From a virus: 64,000 nt of DNA. Location of the stretch: IMG/VR virus record IMGVR_UViG_3300044837_000112, positions 1 to 64,000 of that record; one strand, 5' to 3'. The notes under the pieces are model-generated. The model worked only from the letters and a program-made list of their open reading frames with translations. It did not search any database and was not told where the DNA came from. The first letter of the stretch is position 1, and the number at the start of each line of letters is the position of its first letter. The translations under genes were made by a program, and so were the position numbers. Below are positions 8,512-64,000 of the stretch, piece by piece.

Positions 8512-8700
8512 ATGGAGAAACCAGAGCCGCTGCTGACGCCTGCCGAGGTGGCGTCGATGTTCCGCGTCGACCCCAAGACAGTCACTCGGTGGGCGAAGGC
8601 AGGCAAGCTCAGCGCCATTCGCACGCTCGGCGGTCACCGCCGTTACCGCGAGTCGGAGGTTCGAGAGCTGCTTTATGGGAAGGAGGTACTACCGTCATGA
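8512..8700 (+). CDS. bldC: BldC-family MerR/Xis-like wHTH developmental regulator
   Basis: EPLLTPAEVASMFRVDPKTVTRWAKAGKLSAIRTLGGHRRYRESEVRELL matches Streptomyces BldC (as recalled) almost residue for residue. Confidence 0.92.
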   Translation: MEKPEPLLTPAEVASMFRVDPKTVTRWAKAGKLSAIRTLGGHRRYRESEVRELLYGKEVLPS

Positions 8701-11013: not shown

Positions 11014-11582
11014 TGCCAGTTCGTCGACCTAAGGTAACCGACAGTGTCTTCAGCCGTCTGAACCGACTTCTGTGGGTGCGGACGGAGAATCAGTCCATCA
11101 CTGTCTTTACGCCACCACCAGAGGGCGAGTGGCCCACCTCGTCGGTACTGGTGATGTTCCAGTCGATGAAAAACTCTACGAAGCAGTACACCATAAACCT
11201 GTCGGACATGACCGTGGAAGAGTTAGCAGTGTTCCGACAGGCAATTATCCTGGCACTCGATCTGGCTGAACCCCAGTCGCGTGAAAATGATCGCTTAACG
11301 AAGGATGGGATTCTCGAAGATGGAAACCCTGGACTCAGATTCTATCGACATGCTCCGACGGTGGTGTTTGGAAAGGGGGCGCTCGAACGACACGATCCGA
11401 GCATATACGGGGGACATGCGGAGTTTCTTTCGCGAAACGGGGCTGACATCCCTACCGCTGAAGGACTTCCCGAGCGAAGCAGCAGCGTGGCTGATCTCGA
11501 AGCGGATGACACTGGAACCCAAGACATTGCTCCGTCGCTTGTCATCCGCTCGTCTGATGGGGAAAGTGATGGGGTGTGGTGA
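11013..11582 (+). CDS. hypothetical protein overlapping the recombinase 5' end
   Basis: TGATG coupling and GAGG RBS; last 263 nt overlap 11320-12141 in another frame. Confidence 0.5.
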   Translation: MPVRRPKVTDSVFSRLNRLLWVRTENQSITVFTPPPEGEWPTSSVLVMFQSMKNSTKQYTINLSDMTVEELAVFRQAIILALDLAEPQSRENDRLTKDGILEDGNPGLRFYRHAPTVVFGKGALERHDPSIYGGHAEFLSRNGADIPTAEGLPERSSSVADLEADDTGTQDIAPSLVIRSSDGESDGVW

Positions 11583-12141
11583 TATCCTCCAGGACATCAC
11601 ACTTCCGGTGCCGGCGAAGGCAATCCCACATCCTCTCCCTGGAGGAATTCGAGATCTTCGTGCACTTCTTGGCGTCTGCAAGAGCGATCAACACCGGGCG
11701 CTTGTTGGTTGCCTTGGCTTTGAGGGAATGCGGATGTGCGAAGTACTTACGCTTCGTCCGCGCGACATCGACATGCACGACAAAACGCTGCGCATCTGGG
11801 GTAAAGGCTCCAAGGTTCGTGTCGTCCCGTTCACCAAAAAGGCACAAGAACTGATCCTGCCTGTCTATCTGGACAAGATCTTCATCGATCCCAAGGCTCC
11901 GATGATCGAGTACTCGGATCGACACGCGAGAGCCATCATCACTCAGATGGGCGTAGCTGCCGGAATCTCGCGACCGATCGCATCGCACGATCTTCGTGCC
12001 ACATTCGCTACCCTCGCCTACGCCAAGACGCGGGACGCGAAAGCAGTCCAGAACTGGCTCGGTCACGCGAGCGGGGACACCACGGCTATCTATATCGAAG
12101 TGCCGATGGATACGCTTCGCATCGTCGGCGAGATAGACTAG
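11320..12141 (+). CDS. XerC/XerD-like tyrosine recombinase (no arm-binding domain)
   Basis: core-binding GRSNDTIRAY; catalytic GMRMCE, GKGSKVR, HDLR, LGH..TTAIY. Confidence 0.9.
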   Translation: METLDSDSIDMLRRWCLERGRSNDTIRAYTGDMRSFFRETGLTSLPLKDFPSEAAAWLISKRMTLEPKTLLRRLSSARLMGKVMGCGDILQDITLPVPAKAIPHPLPGGIRDLRALLGVCKSDQHRALVGCLGFEGMRMCEVLTLRPRDIDMHDKTLRIWGKGSKVRVVPFTKKAQELILPVYLDKIFIDPKAPMIEYSDRHARAIITQMGVAAGISRPIASHDLRATFATLAYAKTRDAKAVQNWLGHASGDTTAIYIEVPMDTLRIVGEID

Positions 12142-13257: not shown

Positions 13258-13894
13258 CAACGTCTACCTTCTAGCGGGCCATAAGCCCATCGACTGGATG
13301 ATGGAGCTGTCAGTCCCGATCGAGGGGGACTATGAGGAGAAGTCGGAAGCTCCTGAGACGTTCACTGAATTTCTCGACAGCTTCGCCAAGGCTGGCTCAG
13401 ACTTCTACACTGCGCTCAAGGCTAGTTTTCCCATAGTTCCTGGCTTCAAGAAGACATTCGAGGACGTAGCCGATGCGGAAATGCGAGCCAGCCTACTGAG
13501 AGCAGAATTCGTCTCACCACACGCACGCATCGAGTGGTCGAGTGAGGCCGGGAGTCCGCTAGATGATATGATTAAGTATGCAGAAAGTCTGAGGGGTGGA
13601 AAGATGGCTCCATGGGGTCCAATTGATGCGACGACCCCTCGCGAGAGTCACGTCCACATCTCTGCTAAAGGATGGGAGGGTGCGAGTCCCAGTCGCGGCG
13701 TCATCGACGAGCCTTACTGGTACGAGTACGCTAAGCGTACCGAAGTCAGAGAACAGAAGGAACGCGATGAAAGTGAGATCGCTGATCAGATAGCCGAAGA
13801 GAACGGTACCAGTATTCTTCGATCGGCGAAGAAGGACATCGCCCTGCCGCCGATAAAGAAGAACTCCGGTCCGCCAAAGAAGAGGATGCGATGA
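13241..13894 (+). CDS. hypothetical protein
   Basis: 217-aa ORF with overlaps at both ends. Confidence 0.55.
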   Translation: MRITLDNVYLLAGHKPIDWMMELSVPIEGDYEEKSEAPETFTEFLDSFAKAGSDFYTALKASFPIVPGFKKTFEDVADAEMRASLLRAEFVSPHARIEWSSEAGSPLDDMIKYAESLRGGKMAPWGPIDATTPRESHVHISAKGWEGASPSRGVIDEPYWYEYAKRTEVREQKERDESEIADQIAEENGTSILRSAKKDIALPPIKKNSGPPKKRMR

Positions 13895-14301
13895 CTATCA
13901 AGTGGGAGAAGGCAGACTACTCGGTCGGCAGTAGTGAATGTATCCAGGTAGGCAGGGATACGTCTGTGCCGGACTGGATACATCCACTCATCTTCATGAA
14001 GACGCAGGGTGGCATGTTCGTCGCCACCAACAGAGAATTCGCCAACTTCGTCGCGCAGTGTGCGCGTGGAGACTGGAACCACCTCATCGAAGGATACGAG
14101 ATGACCACACCAGCCGAGCCGTCTGCAGATCCAGACATCGCCGTCATCGAGGCAATGAAGGGCATCGTCGTCAGCGATGCAGTTGTCACTCGTGCAGCCC
14201 TGATGGGGCTGTCACGTGACGACGTCTATTCGCTGAAGCACAAGGCGATGGAGCTGATCGGCTTCGTCGAGGAGCGCTTCGAAGAGCTGCCGGAAGAGTG
14301 A
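13891..14301 (+). CDS. DUF397 (BldB-family) domain protein with C-terminal extension
   Basis: WEKADYSVGSSECIQV...EFANFVAQCARGDWNHL fits the DUF397 pattern WxKSxYS..CVEV...W..FV....GEFD. Confidence 0.65.
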   Translation: MTIKWEKADYSVGSSECIQVGRDTSVPDWIHPLIFMKTQGGMFVATNREFANFVAQCARGDWNHLIEGYEMTTPAEPSADPDIAVIEAMKGIVVSDAVVTRAALMGLSRDDVYSLKHKAMELIGFVEERFEELPEE

Positions 14302-25751: not shown

Positions 25752-25979
25752 ATGCTCGAAGCCGCCTGTCCAGGCAAGGCCCTAGTGACAGATGCGAACG
25801 GTAATGTACGTGATATCTTCTTCCCTCGCAAGGGAGAAAGCGCCGACGACGGCATAGCAGTTTGCTTCGTCTGCACAAAGATACCAGAGTGTGACAGTTG
25901 GGCCACCAGGTCCAATGCTCGCCACGGGATCTGGGGTGGTCGGCGTAGGGGAGGTTTAAATGATTCCAAGAACCATTAG
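25752..25979 (+). CDS. whiB: WhiB-family Fe-S transcription regulator
   Basis: AAC...FFP...VCFVC....EC...GIWGG: four Cys plus G[IV]WGG turn. Confidence 0.85.
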   Translation: MLEAACPGKALVTDANGNVRDIFFPRKGESADDGIAVCFVCTKIPECDSWATRSNARHGIWGGRRRGGLNDSKNH

Positions 25980-57423: not shown

Positions 57424-58329
57424 ATGAGCGTCCAAGAATACACTGACGATATGCTGAAGGATGTTGCCAAACTACTGGCGAAGCACTTCATTGCCAGGTC
57501 TGACGTGATGGCCCAGCAGCACCCCGACGGAGGCTACTCGCCTACCCGCGGGCCCCGTAACCCTGACGGTACACCTGGTGACCTGGCTGGCTTCTCCATG
57601 CCGGCCCTGATGAACCACCTCAAGGGTACGGCGACCCTGGGCCACTATCTGCTGAACAAAGATAACCAGTGCAAGCTGTTCGCCTTTGATATTGATATCG
57701 ACGGCATCAAGTCGGGTACGCCGAAAGAGGATTGGTGTCTGCTTCCAACCTCGTACATCGACGGCGAGTATCGCGAGTACTTCCACATCGATGGGAGGCT
57801 CGCCTGGAAGACTGATATGGCGGGATTCCAGCTAGACGGCGGGCCTACCTATACTCGGGATATGCAAATAGTGAGCCGCGACTTCCTGCGGTACCAGTTG
57901 CGCCGAGTGGCCGACGAACTGATGATCGCGATCCGAGAGAACTTGGAAATCCCGACCGTCTTCGCGTACACCGGCAACAAGGGTCTGCACGTGTACGGGT
58001 TTACTGGCCTGATGGACGCCAAAGATGTGCGTGAAGGGGCCGAAATCTGTGCGGAAGCCGCTAGAATGCGCCCGCATAAGGGGTCTAACTTCTGGAAACC
58101 GACCGATAACTTCGCTGAACCCTGCGCCCTAACGGTTGAGATCTTCCCCAAGCAGACGACCATCGGCGAGGACGGCTTCGGGAATCTGCTCCGTCTGCCC
58201 CTCGGAAAGAACCTGAAGAACCCGGAACACCCCACTTTCTTCTGTTCTGACGTGCCAGGTGGCGAAAGATCCTCTATCACCCCGGTCGATACTCTGCAGC
58301 TGTTTGAAACAGTCTTCCGAGGTCTGTAA
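57424..58329 (+). CDS. archaeo-eukaryotic primase (AEP/PrimPol) domain protein
   Basis: FAFDIDID, YTGNKGLHVY, EIFPKQ, GNLLRLPLG. Confidence 0.85.
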   Translation: MSVQEYTDDMLKDVAKLLAKHFIARSDVMAQQHPDGGYSPTRGPRNPDGTPGDLAGFSMPALMNHLKGTATLGHYLLNKDNQCKLFAFDIDIDGIKSGTPKEDWCLLPTSYIDGEYREYFHIDGRLAWKTDMAGFQLDGGPTYTRDMQIVSRDFLRYQLRRVADELMIAIRENLEIPTVFAYTGNKGLHVYGFTGLMDAKDVREGAEICAEAARMRPHKGSNFWKPTDNFAEPCALTVEIFPKQTTIGEDGFGNLLRLPLGKNLKNPEHPTFFCSDVPGGERSSITPVDTLQLFETVFRGL

Positions 58330-58449
58330 TCCAGTGTACCAAAATACCAGGGATTACTGTCTCGAAGTGCATAAAAAGCCCCATAAAAGGCGGGAAAACG
58401 CCGTGAAAGTGCCTAAAACTGAGCGGACGGCAACGGGGGGCAGAAGTAT

Positions 58450-60390
58450 ATGACAGATGTGAGTACGGCGGGGACTGTAGCGGTAGGTACTACAGTCCCC
58501 GCACCGCGATCTGGCAAGTTTGCGGAGGCTCTTGCAGCCCGCCGGGCGGCGAAGGCGGCAGAGTCTGGGGTAGAGAAGTCGCTACTAGAGGCAGTAGAAG
58601 ACTTCATCCCGGACATACCACCAGACCCGCTCACGGAGTATCAGTCGAAGGTGAACGCAGCCATCGAGGAGATCACCTTCCAGGAGGTCTTCGAGTTGAT
58701 GGTCTCGATGGGGATCATCTCCAGGTCGGCTAAGCCGATCAGCTCCTGGGTCGGCGACTCCAACAAGTTCTTCTGTCCGGACCCGTCCCACGACAACTCC
58801 GGCGGCACCATGAGTGCCTGGGGTTCCCGCGAGAAGGGGAAGTGGACCTGCTCCAAAGGCTGCGGCGATGGGGCAGGTGGTGGCGACAAGTTGTCGCTGG
58901 CTAAATATCTGTTCGGCGAAGAGTTCCACGACAGATGCAACAAATTAGCTGGCGCCCTGCGTGGTGTTAAGAAGCCTGAATTTTTGGTTGGTGGCCTCCC
59001 GCCGGAGTCACCAGTCGCCCTGGTGACACCTTCGACTTCAGTAGCTTCAGCTGAAGTAGCTGAAGTCGGTCCAGCCGGACCAGGGGAAACTACAGATCCG
59101 TTGCTACTGCGTTTCGATGGGAATGCAGTCCTTGCCTTCTCGTCAGTGAAGGATTCGTTCCTTCACAAATACGTTGCCGCAATGGCGCTCAGCTCATCCC
59201 CGGAAGAATTTAATCTGCCACTAGCCATGCTCGTGATTGCACTGGTCAGTGGCCGCCGCGTACAGTTGGACGACGAGTACCCCGTGATCCCGACGATGGG
59301 CATTGTCCTTGTTGGCACCTCGGGTGATGGAAAGACGAACAGCATAAAGCCAGCCAAGAAGCTAATGAGAACTGTTGATCCAGCCGGTCCCGAGAGGTTC
59401 GGCATCAACATCGACAAGAACGTAATCTCCGGACAGGAACTCGTCCACACCTTCCGGAAGGTTGAAAAGGATCTCGAAACCGGCGCCGTAACGGAGTACC
59501 CGATCCGGGCGCTACTCGAGTACCCAGAGTTCTCCGGCTTCTTTGGCAGTACGAAGATGACTGGGTCTTCACTCAAGACGTTCCTACACGAGATGCTCGA
59601 TGGGGACGAATACCTCGGCTACGGGAGCCGCTCCGCTGGAGGCAAGGTGATTGCCCGGAACGCTTTCGGATGCGTCATCTCGACAGTACAGACGGATATG
59701 CTGTCTTCCCTGTTTACGCGGGAAGACGCCGCGTCCGGCTTCATGAACCGCTTCATTATGATCAGCGGAACAGAGAAGGAGCAGGTTGGAATCAATCGAG
59801 CTGTCATCGACAGCGATGGGTATACCGCTGCCCTGCGAGAGGTGAAGTCCTTCTGCCACGGCACGGGGCGATCGAAGCCAATCCTCTGGAACCCTGACGC
59901 AGAAGCTCTGTATAACAAGATCTATAAAGAATATCTCAAACCGATCAAGGACGCTGACCGGCGTGCGCTACTAAAGCGTATCGACCTATACTTCAAAAAG
60001 TTCTGTCTCATCTTTGCAATCAACGAGCGTTCTGAGTATGTGCTGCCACACCATGTACAGATGGCCAGACAGATGACCACGTACATCGTGCCGACAAGTC
60101 AGACCATCTCCGAGAACGTCTTCGTCGCGGACGCGAACGACATGGACGAGTGGCTCGTCCGTCGGATCGGGGCGCTGGAGCTGCTGTCCAGAGAGAAGGA
60201 ACCGACCAAGGAGCACCACGGCCCAACCGTCGCCGCACTCGGACGCGAGTTTAAGAAGAAGAAATGGACCATTGAATCCGTCAACAAGGCACTCAAGGGT
60301 CTCGAGATCGCCGGCATCATCAAGGGGATCGACGGCGGCGGCAAGCGTGGCCAGCGAACTAAGTACTACTATCTTATCGAGCCAGACTAA
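58450..60390 (+). CDS. replication protein: Zn finger + DUF3987-like AAA+ helicase + C-terminal wHTH
   Basis: CPDPSH..WTCSKGC; GTSGDGKT; SGFMNRF; GKRGQRTKYY wing. Confidence 0.75.
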   Translation: MTDVSTAGTVAVGTTVPAPRSGKFAEALAARRAAKAAESGVEKSLLEAVEDFIPDIPPDPLTEYQSKVNAAIEEITFQEVFELMVSMGIISRSAKPISSWVGDSNKFFCPDPSHDNSGGTMSAWGSREKGKWTCSKGCGDGAGGGDKLSLAKYLFGEEFHDRCNKLAGALRGVKKPEFLVGGLPPESPVALVTPSTSVASAEVAEVGPAGPGETTDPLLLRFDGNAVLAFSSVKDSFLHKYVAAMALSSSPEEFNLPLAMLVIALVSGRRVQLDDEYPVIPTMGIVLVGTSGDGKTNSIKPAKKLMRTVDPAGPERFGINIDKNVISGQELVHTFRKVEKDLETGAVTEYPIRALLEYPEFSGFFGSTKMTGSSLKTFLHEMLDGDEYLGYGSRSAGGKVIARNAFGCVISTVQTDMLSSLFTREDAASGFMNRFIMISGTEKEQVGINRAVIDSDGYTAALREVKSFCHGTGRSKPILWNPDAEALYNKIYKEYLKPIKDADRRALLKRIDLYFKKFCLIFAINERSEYVLPHHVQMARQMTTYIVPTSQTISENVFVADANDMDEWLVRRIGALELLSREKEPTKEHHGPTVAALGREFKKKKWTIESVNKALKGLEIAGIIKGIDGGGKRGQRTKYYYLIEPD

Positions 60391-60746: not shown

Positions 60747-60758
60747 ATCAACTAGCGG

Positions 60759-61223
60759 TAATGCGGAGCAAAATAATGCGGAGCACGAATCTTTTTCGTG
60801 CTCCGCATTACTCTCTGTCACGGGCAATAATGCGGAGTAAATCGGCTCCTACTTATTTACTACGAATTACTTTGGCTAGTTGATCTATAAATCGGTTATT
60901 CGGAGCGGCTCCCCAAAACATAAAGGAGCACGTTTGACCTGCGGTTATGCATAGAGGAGTGCGTAAAATGCGGAGCCGTACCGTCTATACCCGTAGGGCC
61001 ATACAGGTATCAAGAAACATCAAGTACTAAATTTCTCCCCTACGGTTACCGTGTGTAGTCATCCGAGTCCTTATACGAAGACTTTGATCACGGTATACGC
61101 CTAGCTCCTAATTCCCCTAATTCTCCTCATTGCGTTTTCGCAGGTCAAACGCCATATGATCATGCTCATACTACTACTACTACTAACTCCTACTTACTTA
61201 TATATATATATATTATAGATAAT
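60759..61223. other. putative replication origin: AATGCGGAG iterons, inverted repeats, AT-rich unwinding tract
   Basis: TAATGCGGAG at 60759, 60774, 60801(-), 60828; variants at 60896 and 60966; IR 60931-60943/61139-61151; (CTA)n/(TA)n at 61171-61223; downstream of primase/helicase. Confidence 0.6.
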
Positions 61224-61418
61224 GAACCATCTGAAGACCCTAAGATGGGGGGTGTAGGCGAGGGTCTATACAACTGGCTATATCTTTCTAGATGATCATG
61301 CTTTCAGAAAAACTTGGTGTGTGTTGCGCGAGGCAAGAGAGGCCCGATTTCGTGCCCGGTTTGTCATTTTTTGTCCGGTATGCCCCGATAATTTGTCCGT
61401 TTTGCCCCGATTCTAATG

Positions 61419-61620
61419 TGGACAAGTCCACATCGGACTGTCCGTTTTGCACCGATCTGTACCATTGGTCAGTCCGATATGGCACAGATGCCCGAGTCCA
61501 CATTGGACAGGTCTACATCGGACTGTCCGTTATACCCCGATCTGTACCATTGGCCAGTCCGATATGCACGAGATGACCCTGTTCCACATTGGACAGGTCT
61601 ACATCGGACTGTCCGTTATG
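61419..61620. repeat. 85-86-bp tandem repeat, about 2.4 copies
   Basis: units start with TGGACA at 61419, 61504 and 61590. Confidence 0.85.
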
Positions 61621-61630
61621 TCGTGATATC

Positions 61631-61658
61631 ATCACCGATAGTGTGCACTATCGGTGAT
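61631..61658. repeat. 13-bp-arm palindrome
   Basis: ATCACCGATAGTG-TG-CACTATCGGTGAT. Confidence 0.85.
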
Positions 61659-61730
61659 CTAGACCATCAGATGGTCCAAAGGTATGACCATTAGCATGAC
61701 CAGCCATCGTACAGGTGTGCTATGCGAGAC

Positions 61731-61744
61731 GTTTCACGTGAAAC
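61731..61744. promoter_or_regulatory. parS: chromosome-type parS site
   Basis: perfect GTTTCACGTGAAAC inside a 20-bp palindrome (61728-61747). Confidence 0.88.
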
Positions 61745-61865
61745 GTCAAAGATCATCTTCGTGTGGTCGCGTAGGGCTAGTTGATCTTGGTCTAGTCTTG
61801 GCGCGAGACTAGTTCACATCCACCATACCGTCTGGTGGTAAGACCTTTCCAACGGACCATCTGCA

Positions 61866-61906
61866 TGACTGTCTAATGGTCCTACCATTAGACCATTAGA
61901 CAGTCA
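61866..61906. repeat. 16-bp inverted repeat
   Basis: TGACTGTCTAATGGTC / GACCATTAGACAGTCA. Confidence 0.85.
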
Positions 61907-61962
61907 GACCATTGGCACAGCGGCCAGTCAAACCAGTAGTACGTGACACAAACTAAAAAGAA

Positions 61963-62275
61963 AGTTAACAGTCCGGTAAACAACCTTTACAATTGCCATC
62001 CAAGCAACTGTAAAGAAACCTAACCCAATGGTAAACAACCTTTACAGTTGCCCATACCCAACCATCCTAGGAAGCTAGGAGGCTAGGATGCCCACCACCA
62101 GCACTGTTAAGACTCTTTACAGTAACGCAAACCTTCTTTACAATTGCATCAGCAACTATCATCGCGGCAAACATCTAACTGTTAACAAACCTTCTTCAAT
62201 AGCAAACCTTGTTAACAGTCATCCATGATCACTGTTAACAAACCTTACCGTACAGCCAACCTTCCTAACAGTCGT
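61963..62275. repeat. A/C-skewed block of GTAAA/AAACCTT/TTTACA/TGTTAACA repeats
   Basis: GGTAAACAACCTTTACA(A/G)TTGCC at 61975 and 62030; ACTGTTAACAAACCTT at 62178 and 62231. Confidence 0.8.
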
Positions 62276-62888
62276 ACCACACCCACAACCTAGCCCATCT
62301 GTCAACCAGAAACGCCGGGCAATCCACCGAACGGTCTGACATCCAGCCCTAGCGGTTGGGTAGCCGAGCCGTTCGGTCATTCCGCTAGTTGATCTACGCC
62401 CGGCCGTCCGACGTCATCCGCCAATGGCCCATCTAGACCCCCTAGCGTCGCCACCGACGGGCGTTCTAGCGCCTGGTTATAACCACACCGACCTAGGCGA
62501 TTTCTCGCGGCACGATCGATCCTAGCGCGTTTCCGCTGGTCAACCGATGTGATCATTTGTCCGTATCGGTCCGCGTAGCGCCTACGGTGATCCAGTAGGC
62601 CACCGAATGTGGCCGAAAAACCCTTGACAATCACCCATCTGGCCGATACCTCATCGCCCGTAGGCGAGCTGTCCTAGCTTCCTAGGATGCGTCGCATCCC
62701 CCAAAGATCTAGGGCACCTGGGCATCCTAGGACACTAGGAAGGTGACCCGGCTGGGCATCCTAGGACACTAGGACGCTGGCCGAAAGGTTGATCCTCCGA
62801 ACGGTTGGCCAGGGCTGACCAGAAGTCTTTTTTGTCTAGCCGTTCGACAGCCGTTCTAGCGTGCATATGCGTGTCCTAGGCACTAGGA
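62063..62888. repeat. TCCTAGG-N2-3-CTAGGA motif family, five copies
   Basis: 18-bp IR 62063-62080/62672-62689; 23-bp DR 62718-62740/62752-62774; variant 62874-62888. Confidence 0.8.
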
Positions 62889-63205
62889 TTGGCGTAGCGC
62901 CAAAGACGGAACGAAAAACGGTACGGGGTAGGGGACGGGCCAGGGGCCAGGCGCAACCTAGCGCATGCGGGCCCCGGGCTAGTTGTTCGTTGACATCTGA
63001 ATGTGCCTGGTTACTAATGGGCACCACTCTGACCAACCATGGCGCTAGCTAGCGCCCGTTGCGTGATCTCGTAGACCTATGTGTCCGGGATATCCGACAT
63101 GCCTCAGCCATGGTTTAGCCCGTAGACGGGCTGGTCACCTGACGATGACTTTGGTTACGTCCTTATGACGGGCCGTTTTGATCCTCGTACGTTTCATGGT
63201 TTCTG

Positions 63206-63219
63206 GTTTCACGTGAAAC
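63206..63219. promoter_or_regulatory. parS: second chromosome-type parS site
   Basis: perfect GTTTCACGTGAAAC(A). Confidence 0.88.
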
Positions 63220-63246
63220 ATCGAGATCAACTAAAAGGCGGCTGTT

Positions 63247-63531
63247 ATGAGTGTTTTGGGCGTTATGACTCACCGTGATTTTCACGCGGAAACGCACGCG
63301 TTCCTCGCTAGTAAGGGCATCGACACGTCGTCGGACTCGTTCGACGAGATCGACGTCGATGACCTCCGCACCATGATCAGCCAGACGTTCGCCGACGAGG
63401 CGAACCTGGAGAAACTGTTTGCTATGCCGTATAACTCGGGCGCCCAGTTGGCGCTCGGTGGCGCGTTGTCCGTACTGCGGGCGTTGCGCAACGACTACGC
63501 CGACTTGATCAAGTACCTGATCGGAGCCTGA
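63247..63531 (+). CDS. small acidic hypothetical protein
   Basis: AAAGGCGG RBS; 94 aa. Confidence 0.6.
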   Translation: MSVLGVMTHRDFHAETHAFLASKGIDTSSDSFDEIDVDDLRTMISQTFADEANLEKLFAMPYNSGAQLALGGALSVLRALRNDYADLIKYLIGA

Positions 63532-63823: not shown

Positions 63824-64000
63824 ATGTTTGAGACAGACAAATTGAGCGATGCCGTGCGCGTCGGGACCTTTTCCGACATGCGCAAGACCGACTCGCTCCA
63901 GTGGATTCAGCGCGTTAGTGGTTTCGTGCTTGTCCGCTTCATGGAGGTTTCTTCGTTTTATCACTTTGAGGACTTTGTGTCCGTTATCGCGTACGGCTAT
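63824..64000 (+). CDS. hypothetical protein, truncated by the window end
   Basis: same CTAAAGGCGG RBS as 63247; MFETDKLSDAVRVG... is open to the end. Confidence 0.5.
   Translation, partial: MFETDKLSDAVRVGTFSDMRKTDSLQWIQRVSGFVLVRFMEVSSFYHFEDFVSVIAYGY

Follow-up and report, generated by a model that had tools for sequence, protein, structure and literature searches.

Six exact chromosomal-type parS sites beside an origin-like region of an actinophage without ParA or ParB are putative loading sites for host ParB

What would a phage that encodes neither ParA nor ParB do with exact copies of parS, the centromere site of bacterial chromosomes? This question was raised by a virus in the IMG/VR database (record IMGVR_UViG_3300044837_000112; 78,971 bp, rated 99% complete). 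The first 64,000 bases of the record, referred to here as the window, had been annotated earlier, and coordinates in the window and in the record are identical. The initial annotation described two exact copies of a 14-bp parS palindrome in non-coding DNA. We observed both copies, at 61731-61744 and 63206-63219, within or bordering a gene-poor stretch of 2.5 kb (60747-63246). Two was an undercount: across the whole record, the exact 14-mer GTTTCACGTGAAAC occurs six times, and the last four copies lie just beyond the window end.

61731-61744: parS-1, exact 14-mer, central in a perfect palindrome of 20 bp (61728-61747); non-coding
63206-63219: parS-2, exact 14-mer with G..A flanks; ends 27 nucleotides (nt) before an ATG at 63247
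64200-64213: parS-3, exact 14-mer; 34 nt before an ATG at 64248
64831-64844: parS-4, full 16-mer; codons 35-39 of the coding sequence 64729-65403
65685-65698: parS-5, full 16-mer; codons 47-51 of the coding sequence 65547-65819
66238-66251: parS-6, full 16-mer; in the frame 66016-66570 or 34 nt before an ATG at 66286

The six copies span 4.5 kb, with spacings of 1475, 994, 631, 854 and 553 bp. Base composition predicts 0.00018 exact copies of the 14-mer in the whole record, compared to the six observed. We found no variant with one or two mismatches anywhere in the record; the next best matches had three mismatches, which is chance level. The 40-bp flanks around the six sites were only 16-34% identical, that is, unrelated, which suggests that the 14-mer was preserved alone and not within a longer duplicated segment. 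These data support the earlier assessment that a chance origin is very unlikely. The word is also the chromosomal one, as had been proposed. All six sites match the 14-bp core of the 16-bp chromosomal parS consensus TGTTNCACGTGAAACA, and three of the six (parS-4, parS-5 and parS-6) match the full 16-mer TGTTTCACGTGAAACA exactly, two of these within 18-bp palindromes. The 16-mer is the parS of mycobacteria and Bacillus subtilis (PMC2346475).

In five genomes of 5-10 Mb (Micromonospora, Salinispora, Actinoplanes, Phytohabitans and one metagenome-assembled genome), the exact 14-mer was present only three to nine times each. Within each genome all copies fell in one 3-10 kb cluster, and this cluster surrounded a single strong ParB_N match in three of the three genomes searched for ParB_N. 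With three to nine copies in one cluster on the host side, the phage array equals the whole centromere of these candidate hosts in number, density and spacing. Like the chromosomal parS clusters of Streptomyces, Mycobacterium, Corynebacterium and Micromonosporaceae, the array uses the identical 14/16-bp word and has several copies within a few kb, some in genes, beside an origin region. Unlike those clusters, it is phage-borne, lacks an adjoining parAB operon, is flanked by phage orphan genes and has a guanine plus cytosine (GC) content of 57%, which is not host-like. Streptomyces ParB binds many parS sites near oriC and organises chromosomes in sporogenic hyphae (PMC12207404). We infer only that the host is an actinomycete; a Micromonosporaceae-like or a Mycobacteriales-like host would each supply a ParB of such specificity. 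Captured host DNA was considered as a source of the array and was ruled out by the GC content (57.1% in the parS region, 57.8% in the whole genome), the phage orphan genes and the unrelated flanks.

The sites occupy different positions relative to genes. One is non-coding, two or three precede a start codon by 27-34 nt, and no fewer than two are inside coding frames. The 27-bp distance from parS-2 to a start codon, given in the initial annotation, was confirmed (ATG 63247). parS-4, parS-5 and parS-6 are read in the same frame as V-S-R-E-T with identical codons (GTT TCA CGT GAA ACA), and this peptide can be encoded by 1,152 codon combinations. Codon statistics gave a clear coding signal on both sides of parS-4 and parS-5. 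The frame 66016-66570 showed no codon bias upstream of parS-6, so this site may instead precede the start at 66286 by 34 nt. Letter-perfect sites with identical codons inside coding frames point to selection that probably acts on the DNA word itself and not on a peptide, a promoter or a leader.

We performed six-frame searches of the whole record for ParB_N (PF02195), HTH_ParB (PF17762), AAA_31 (PF13614) and CbiA (PF01656) at E ≤ 1. No match was obtained in the record and the control genomes matched; these searches work at the Pfam level, and a highly diverged ParB could escape them. Scans of about 90 of the 108 predicted proteins, including all those around the parS sites, against Pfam, PHROGs and NCBIfam detected no partition protein and no repressor. 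At this level, the earlier statement that the phage has no ParAB holds for the whole record, which thus lacks the parA and parB beside their own parS that make up a plasmid or prophage parABS cassette. A 385-amino acid (aa) protein encoded beside the sites was considered as a phage-encoded binder and was rejected, as it is also present in phage ReqiDocB7, which has no parS.

The absence of both proteins separates the phage from elements with partition systems of their own. Plasmid prophages such as P1, N15 and cluster A mycobacteriophages (for example, RedRock) also carry cis-acting centromere sites on a phage genome, and in N15 the partition sites are dispersed among phage genes. These prophages encode their own ParA and ParB (or SopAB) that act on private sites, whereas the present phage has neither protein and carries the chromosomal consensus. 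A likeness in kind is offered by the island SGI1, reported to be a mobile element relying on the partition system of another replicon, the parABS of an IncC helper plasmid (PMC10954446). SGI1 is an island that borrows from a helper plasmid, whereas the present element is a phage and the system would be that of the host chromosome.

The initial annotation placed the sites beside a putative origin. This agrees with our analysis, in which repeat-rich, origin-like non-coding DNA heads the early genes. The features of this region are as follows.

57424-60390, plus strand: AEP-type primase gene and 646-aa orphan gene, directly upstream of the non-coding region; replication-module context
60747-63246, plus strand: non-coding region of 2.5 kb, GC 50.5%, no convincing gene, with an AT-rich tract, repeats and two sigma-70-like sites; putative origin and early control region
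About 61170-61235: AT-rich tract with (TA)n, in the non-coding region
61403-61660: three 85-bp tandem units, in the non-coding region
61965-61993 and 62116-62144: strong sigma-70-like sites, in a repeat block
63150-66637, plus strand: five abutting early-gene cassettes, each within its own inverted repeat, continuing past the window end at 64000
63150/63737, 63773/64124, 64159/64615, 64645/65438 and 65463/66596: inverted-repeat arms of the cassettes, 29-44 nt, 86-97% complementary

The repeat families of the non-coding region include four copies of TTTGTCCG..GCCCCGAT, four copies of CATCCTAGGACACTAGGA, and four units of ~45 nt that carry CTTTACAATTGC and accompany the two strong sigma-70-like sites. 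parS-1 lies between the block of 85-bp units, which has short iteron-like repeats, and the repeat block with the sigma-70-like sites. The genes adjoining the parS sites are small orphans. parS-2 and parS-3 are just inside the left inverted-repeat arms of the first and third early cassettes, with parS-2 starting 23 nt past the left arm of the first. The inverted repeats around the cassettes resemble long-range stems that would process or stabilise RNA. We also considered mimicry of host DnaA boxes. A single perfect box (61417) and two more GTCCACA cores nearby, all within 61417-61502, were too little to claim it.

As a separate observation, the loose palindrome T.AC(N5)GT.A occurs 21 times in the record. 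Nine of these matches are in the 6.4-kb early region (60808-67159), and three overlap one another at 66027-66059, at the start of a DUF6011 frame. The pattern resembles the outline of a BldD box and is a poor fit to the published BldD consensus, so it is a weak lead.

How might a phage use such sites? The best-studied comparison is phi29. In its genome (NC_011048) we found four copies of TGTTTCACGTGGAACA and one degenerate copy, most of them inside genes. TGTTTCACGTGGAACA is presumably the reverse complement of the B. subtilis parS. phi29 has been reported to contain five parS sites, with the host protein Spo0J taking part when the phage genome is segregated into the prespore (PMC2731898). The implication in the initial annotation that the arrangement is unprecedented was thus incorrect, as the host-type sites of phi29 already act together with host Spo0J (PMC2731898). 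Like phi29 and its relative Nf, the present phage is of a virulent type without ParB or ParA and carries several host-chromosome parS sites, some of them in genes. It differs from phi29 in other respects. The present phage is a siphovirus-like actinophage of 79 kb, whereas phi29 is a protein-primed podovirus of only 19 kb that infects a Firmicute. The phi29 sites are scattered over the genome, whereas here six perfect sites are packed into 4.5 kb beside an origin-like region and head the early genes. phi29 pairs parS with Spo0A boxes; the present phage carries BldC-like and WhiB genes instead. We found no report of host-type parS on actinophages in the literature searched, which left most subscription journals outside its scope. 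As far as these searches reach, host-type parS on ParB-less phages has been documented experimentally only in the phi29 family.

We consider it likely that host ParB binds the six sites. It is also probable, with somewhat less confidence, that they are loading sites for host ParB, a phi29-type use by a phage without ParAB. This reading is favored because the sites reproduce the exact centromere word including its flanks, with a centromere-like number and clustering near an origin-like region, and because they are kept inside coding sequence, lack a phage ParAB and recur in unrelated phages (below). The earlier proposal that host ParB is borrowed or titrated is the best-supported reading of the sequence. 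Under this reading, host ParB dimers would bind each 16-bp palindrome, close into clamps bound to cytidine triphosphate (CTP) and slide onto adjacent DNA. Sliding ParB would thereby cover the origin-like region together with the first early genes, and to ParA, possibly also to SMC, the covered phage DNA would resemble the origin region of a chromosome. ParB spreading, as proposed earlier, might also silence early genes; none of the sites overlaps the promoter-like sites found. In a non-lysing or delayed infection, the phage DNA could then be positioned and carried with the chromosomes into daughter compartments or spores, and not be lost.

We assessed the recurrence of the sites in relatives of the phage. 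In Gordonia phage Woes, a pair of exact sites (421 bp apart) lies ~2.5 kb from the right genome end, where it separates the first genes of a leftward early operon. Their location is syntenic with that in the present phage: in both, the sites precede homologues of the 385-aa protein, a DUF6011 protein, an ATPase and CobT. Shelley and Jams carry the same pair as Woes, and ParB_N gave no match in any of these three phages. No parS site was present in Monty, Hotorobo, Adgers, ReqiDocB7, Mbo2 or Reynauld, and TIN2 had one copy with one mismatch. Among 16 large IMG/VR relatives (45-57% portal identity), 15 had no parS and one had a single site. A parS count in related phages, named in the initial annotation as a check, therefore gave a split result, with pairs in Woes, Shelley and Jams and no site in most other relatives. 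Because most relatives are without parS, the trait is accessory.

The trait also evolves quickly, as seen in the Woesvirus phages. Their conserved intergenic module (Woes 70959-71519) consists of a GAGTCGGATGACTC hairpin, a variable, swappable hairpin and then GGTGGTACACCCGCTT. The middle hairpin has parS at its apex in Woes, Shelley and Jams, and is an unrelated GC-rich stem in Anamika and Lahirium, in which the right-end 5.8 kb examined contained no parS. In Bianmat, it carries one parS copy with one mismatch (G-to-A). The parS hairpins of Woes are very stable (−28 and −31 kcal/mol; z = −6 and −10). Their stems have no sequence in common, and the apex 16-mer is identical in both. In Woesvirus, the palindrome seems to have lodged where a hairpin was already tolerated.

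A megablast search of the 60.5-64 kb segment against 50,697 phage records gave no match. One portal protein was 83% identical, on a 16.9-kb fragment without the early region.

A scan of IMG/VR for the 14-mer detected at least 119 loci, at least 21 of them with two to five copies. T..A flanks, which were outside the search pattern, were present at 110 of 157 sites among the matches listed, compared to ~6% expected by chance. The multi-copy loci listed formed two groups with arrays of three to five sites, which have no proteins in common with each other or with the present phage. Group one comprises 12-18 kb low-GC gut phages that are phi29-like and have a protein-primed polymerase. The arrays include the following.

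L012, L024, L035, L100, L110 and L111: low-GC phi29-like gut phage contigs with three or four sites each, some paired 26-34 bp apart
L095:10536-11461 and L037:2658-3443: unrelated viral contigs of 50-54% GC with five perfect 16-bp parS sites in less than 1 kb

ParB_N gave no match in the five array-bearing IMG/VR loci tested, which are fragments. Since unrelated array-bearing phages lack a common protein, the common factor would be host ParB.

The genome as a whole is that of a siphovirus-like actinophage; the DNA was judged to be phage by its gene content, its synteny with Woes and its GC content. The portal is 40-50% identical to portals of Rhodococcus, Gordonia and Tsukamurella phages. A plus-strand arm runs from 57.4 kb through the contig end on to 27.1 kb, in the order AEP primase, 2.5-kb non-coding region, small orphan early genes, three transfer RNA (tRNA) genes and enzyme genes. 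The enzyme genes of this arm encode an AAA_5 ATPase, a CobT/vWA protein, a BldC-like helix-turn-helix (HTH) protein, an Xer-like recombinase, an SNF2 helicase, an exonuclease, a beta clamp, RusA, a DNA methylase, WhiB and a PD-(D/E)XK nuclease. Record features outside the parS region are listed below.

27.1-57.0 kb, minus strand: structural genes (Mu-like portal, capsid, tail tube, tape measure)
8512-8700: BldC-like MerR/HTH_17 gene; the product shares 91-94% identity with the chromosomal BldC proteins of Micromonosporaceae and of some Nocardioidaceae, a very close match for a phage gene
11320-12141: Xer-like tyrosine recombinase, 273 aa, aligned end-to-end with the XerA, XerC and XerD models, below cut-offs; no arm-binding domain
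13891-14301: weak DUF397 match
25785-25979: WhiB gene
67804-68961: 385-aa protein, with a homologue in ReqiDocB7
69942-70340: 132-aa protein with a C-terminal ~70-aa domain (...YPEG...GR.GARK) in common with the 385-aa protein
70391-72065: tRNA-Met(CAT), tRNA-Gln(CTG) and an odd tRNA-like gene with an abnormal anticodon loop (ARAGORN)
78,890-78,971: long poly-G run followed by GC-only sequence, at the contig end

The ~70-aa domain of the 385-aa and 132-aa proteins looks like a DNA-binding module; it is homologous to Woes gp88 and is present in ReqiDocB7, Perlina, TIN3/4 and Kvothe-like phages. The poly-G and GC-only sequence at the contig end probably arose during sequencing or assembly, which makes the position of the contig break, within the plus-strand arm, arbitrary. 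The BldC-like, WhiB and DUF397-like genes hint at a developmental actinomycete host and fit one with a developmental cycle. Of the 151 Actinomycetota genomes sampled, a Micromonospora genome gave the best match to the BldC-like protein (93%); six unpublished genomes in that output support none of the claims made here. LysB/cutinase gave no information on the host, as Woes itself had no match.

The alternative that survives best is a ParB sponge, although we consider it unlikely. The sites would bind host ParB and drain it, with control over ParA and SMC, off the chromosome, which would disturb segregation, septation or sporulation to the benefit of the phage. The phage sites are as many as those of a host chromosome (three to nine), and after replication hundreds of copies of six sites would outnumber the latter. 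The sites are in early DNA, and the BldC-like HTH and WhiB proteins, as regulators of host development, fit an interference with development. However, a sponge would not need clustering beside an origin-like region, and the two sites of Woes would make a weak one. The sole studied case, phi29, indicates segregation of the phage genome and not titration (PMC2731898).

An improbable alternative is a cis element that works without ParB, either as an operator bound by a regulator of the phage or the host, or as a leader hairpin that stabilises or processes early messenger RNA, in which the identity to parS is incidental. parS-2, parS-3 and possibly parS-6 are 27-34 nt upstream of starts and, at the cassettes, just inside the inverted-repeat arms; the Woes sites are at the tip of highly stable hairpins between genes, and sister phages have an unrelated hairpin there. 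The hairpins of the present phage are, however, weak, with unremarkable stabilities (−10 to −14 kcal/mol; z = −0.5 to −2.7), and at least two of its sites are inside coding frames. None of the sites overlaps a promoter-like site among those found, and parS as an operator or promoter element was rejected for this reason. The odds that an 8-base half-site would match the host centromere by accident are about 1 in 65,000, and unrelated phages from different phyla show this match again. The array-bearing phages have no common protein able to bind the word, and the sole conserved neighbouring protein family is also present in ReqiDocB7, which is without parS.

Partition as a low-copy plasmid prophage, segregated by host ParAB through the array and with dimers resolved by the Xer-like recombinase, is just as improbable and has the least support: the full-length recombinase without an arm-binding domain (11320-12141), the phage's own replication module and the parS cluster adjoining an origin-like region would fit it. 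Against it, searches detected neither a repressor nor a plasmid Rep, ParA or ParB, and the portal, searched against 185,579 species genomes, gave no prophage or plasmid relative. The parS-less phages ReqiDocB7 and Mbo2 have homologues of the recombinase, and parS-bearing Woes does not. A link between the recombinase and parS was rejected on this distribution, and the phage-plasmid framing of the initial annotation did not stand, as neither a repressor nor a plasmid replication or partition gene accompanies a recombinase that does not co-occur with parS.

Several observations weigh against host-ParB loading as the function of the sites. The Montyvirus phages and 15 of the 16 larger relatives lack parS, and some Woesvirus members have an unrelated hairpin in place of the parS hairpin; sites that are absent or replaced in relatives are dispensable for growth. 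The Woes sites cap very stable intergenic hairpins, and two or three sites of the present phage are 27-34 nt before start codons, so a role in RNA or gene expression is possible. Searches with the 646-aa protein against viral and metagenome contigs, with the 385-aa protein against metagenome contigs and with the portal against species genomes gave no close relative of the early region. The host clues diverge, as the BldC-like protein is nearest to Micromonosporaceae and Nocardioidaceae and the portal is nearest to Gordonia and Rhodococcus phages. Finally, Gordonia does not sporulate, so trapping in spores cannot be the general purpose of the sites.

If host ParB is loaded, the most likely gain for the phage, by analogy to phi29 and with lower confidence than binding itself, would be the positioning or retention of its DNA in dividing or sporulating cells. 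A more specific version, which we regard as rather doubtful, is an actinomycete counterpart of phi29 spore entrapment, in which a full-size copy of the host centromere is paired with regulators of development (BldC-like and WhiB). The hyphae would be kept vegetative during multiplication; the phage genome would then be lined up by ParAB, sealed into exospores and resume at germination. In a bolder variant, the ParB coat might mark incoming DNA as 'chromosome' and shield it from condensin-like defences that restrict plasmids and phages.

Together with the conserved Woesvirus pair, the present phage would extend phi29-type borrowing to actinophages. A centromere-sized array that is kept even in coding sequence argues for a real selective value. 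Woes (two sites), Bianmat (one degenerate site) and Anamika and Lahirium (none in the right-end 5.8 kb) form a natural allelic series on Gordonia terrae 3612. Taken with the unrelated array-bearing viral contigs, these data suggest that borrowing host ParB is a widespread and under-studied phage strategy.

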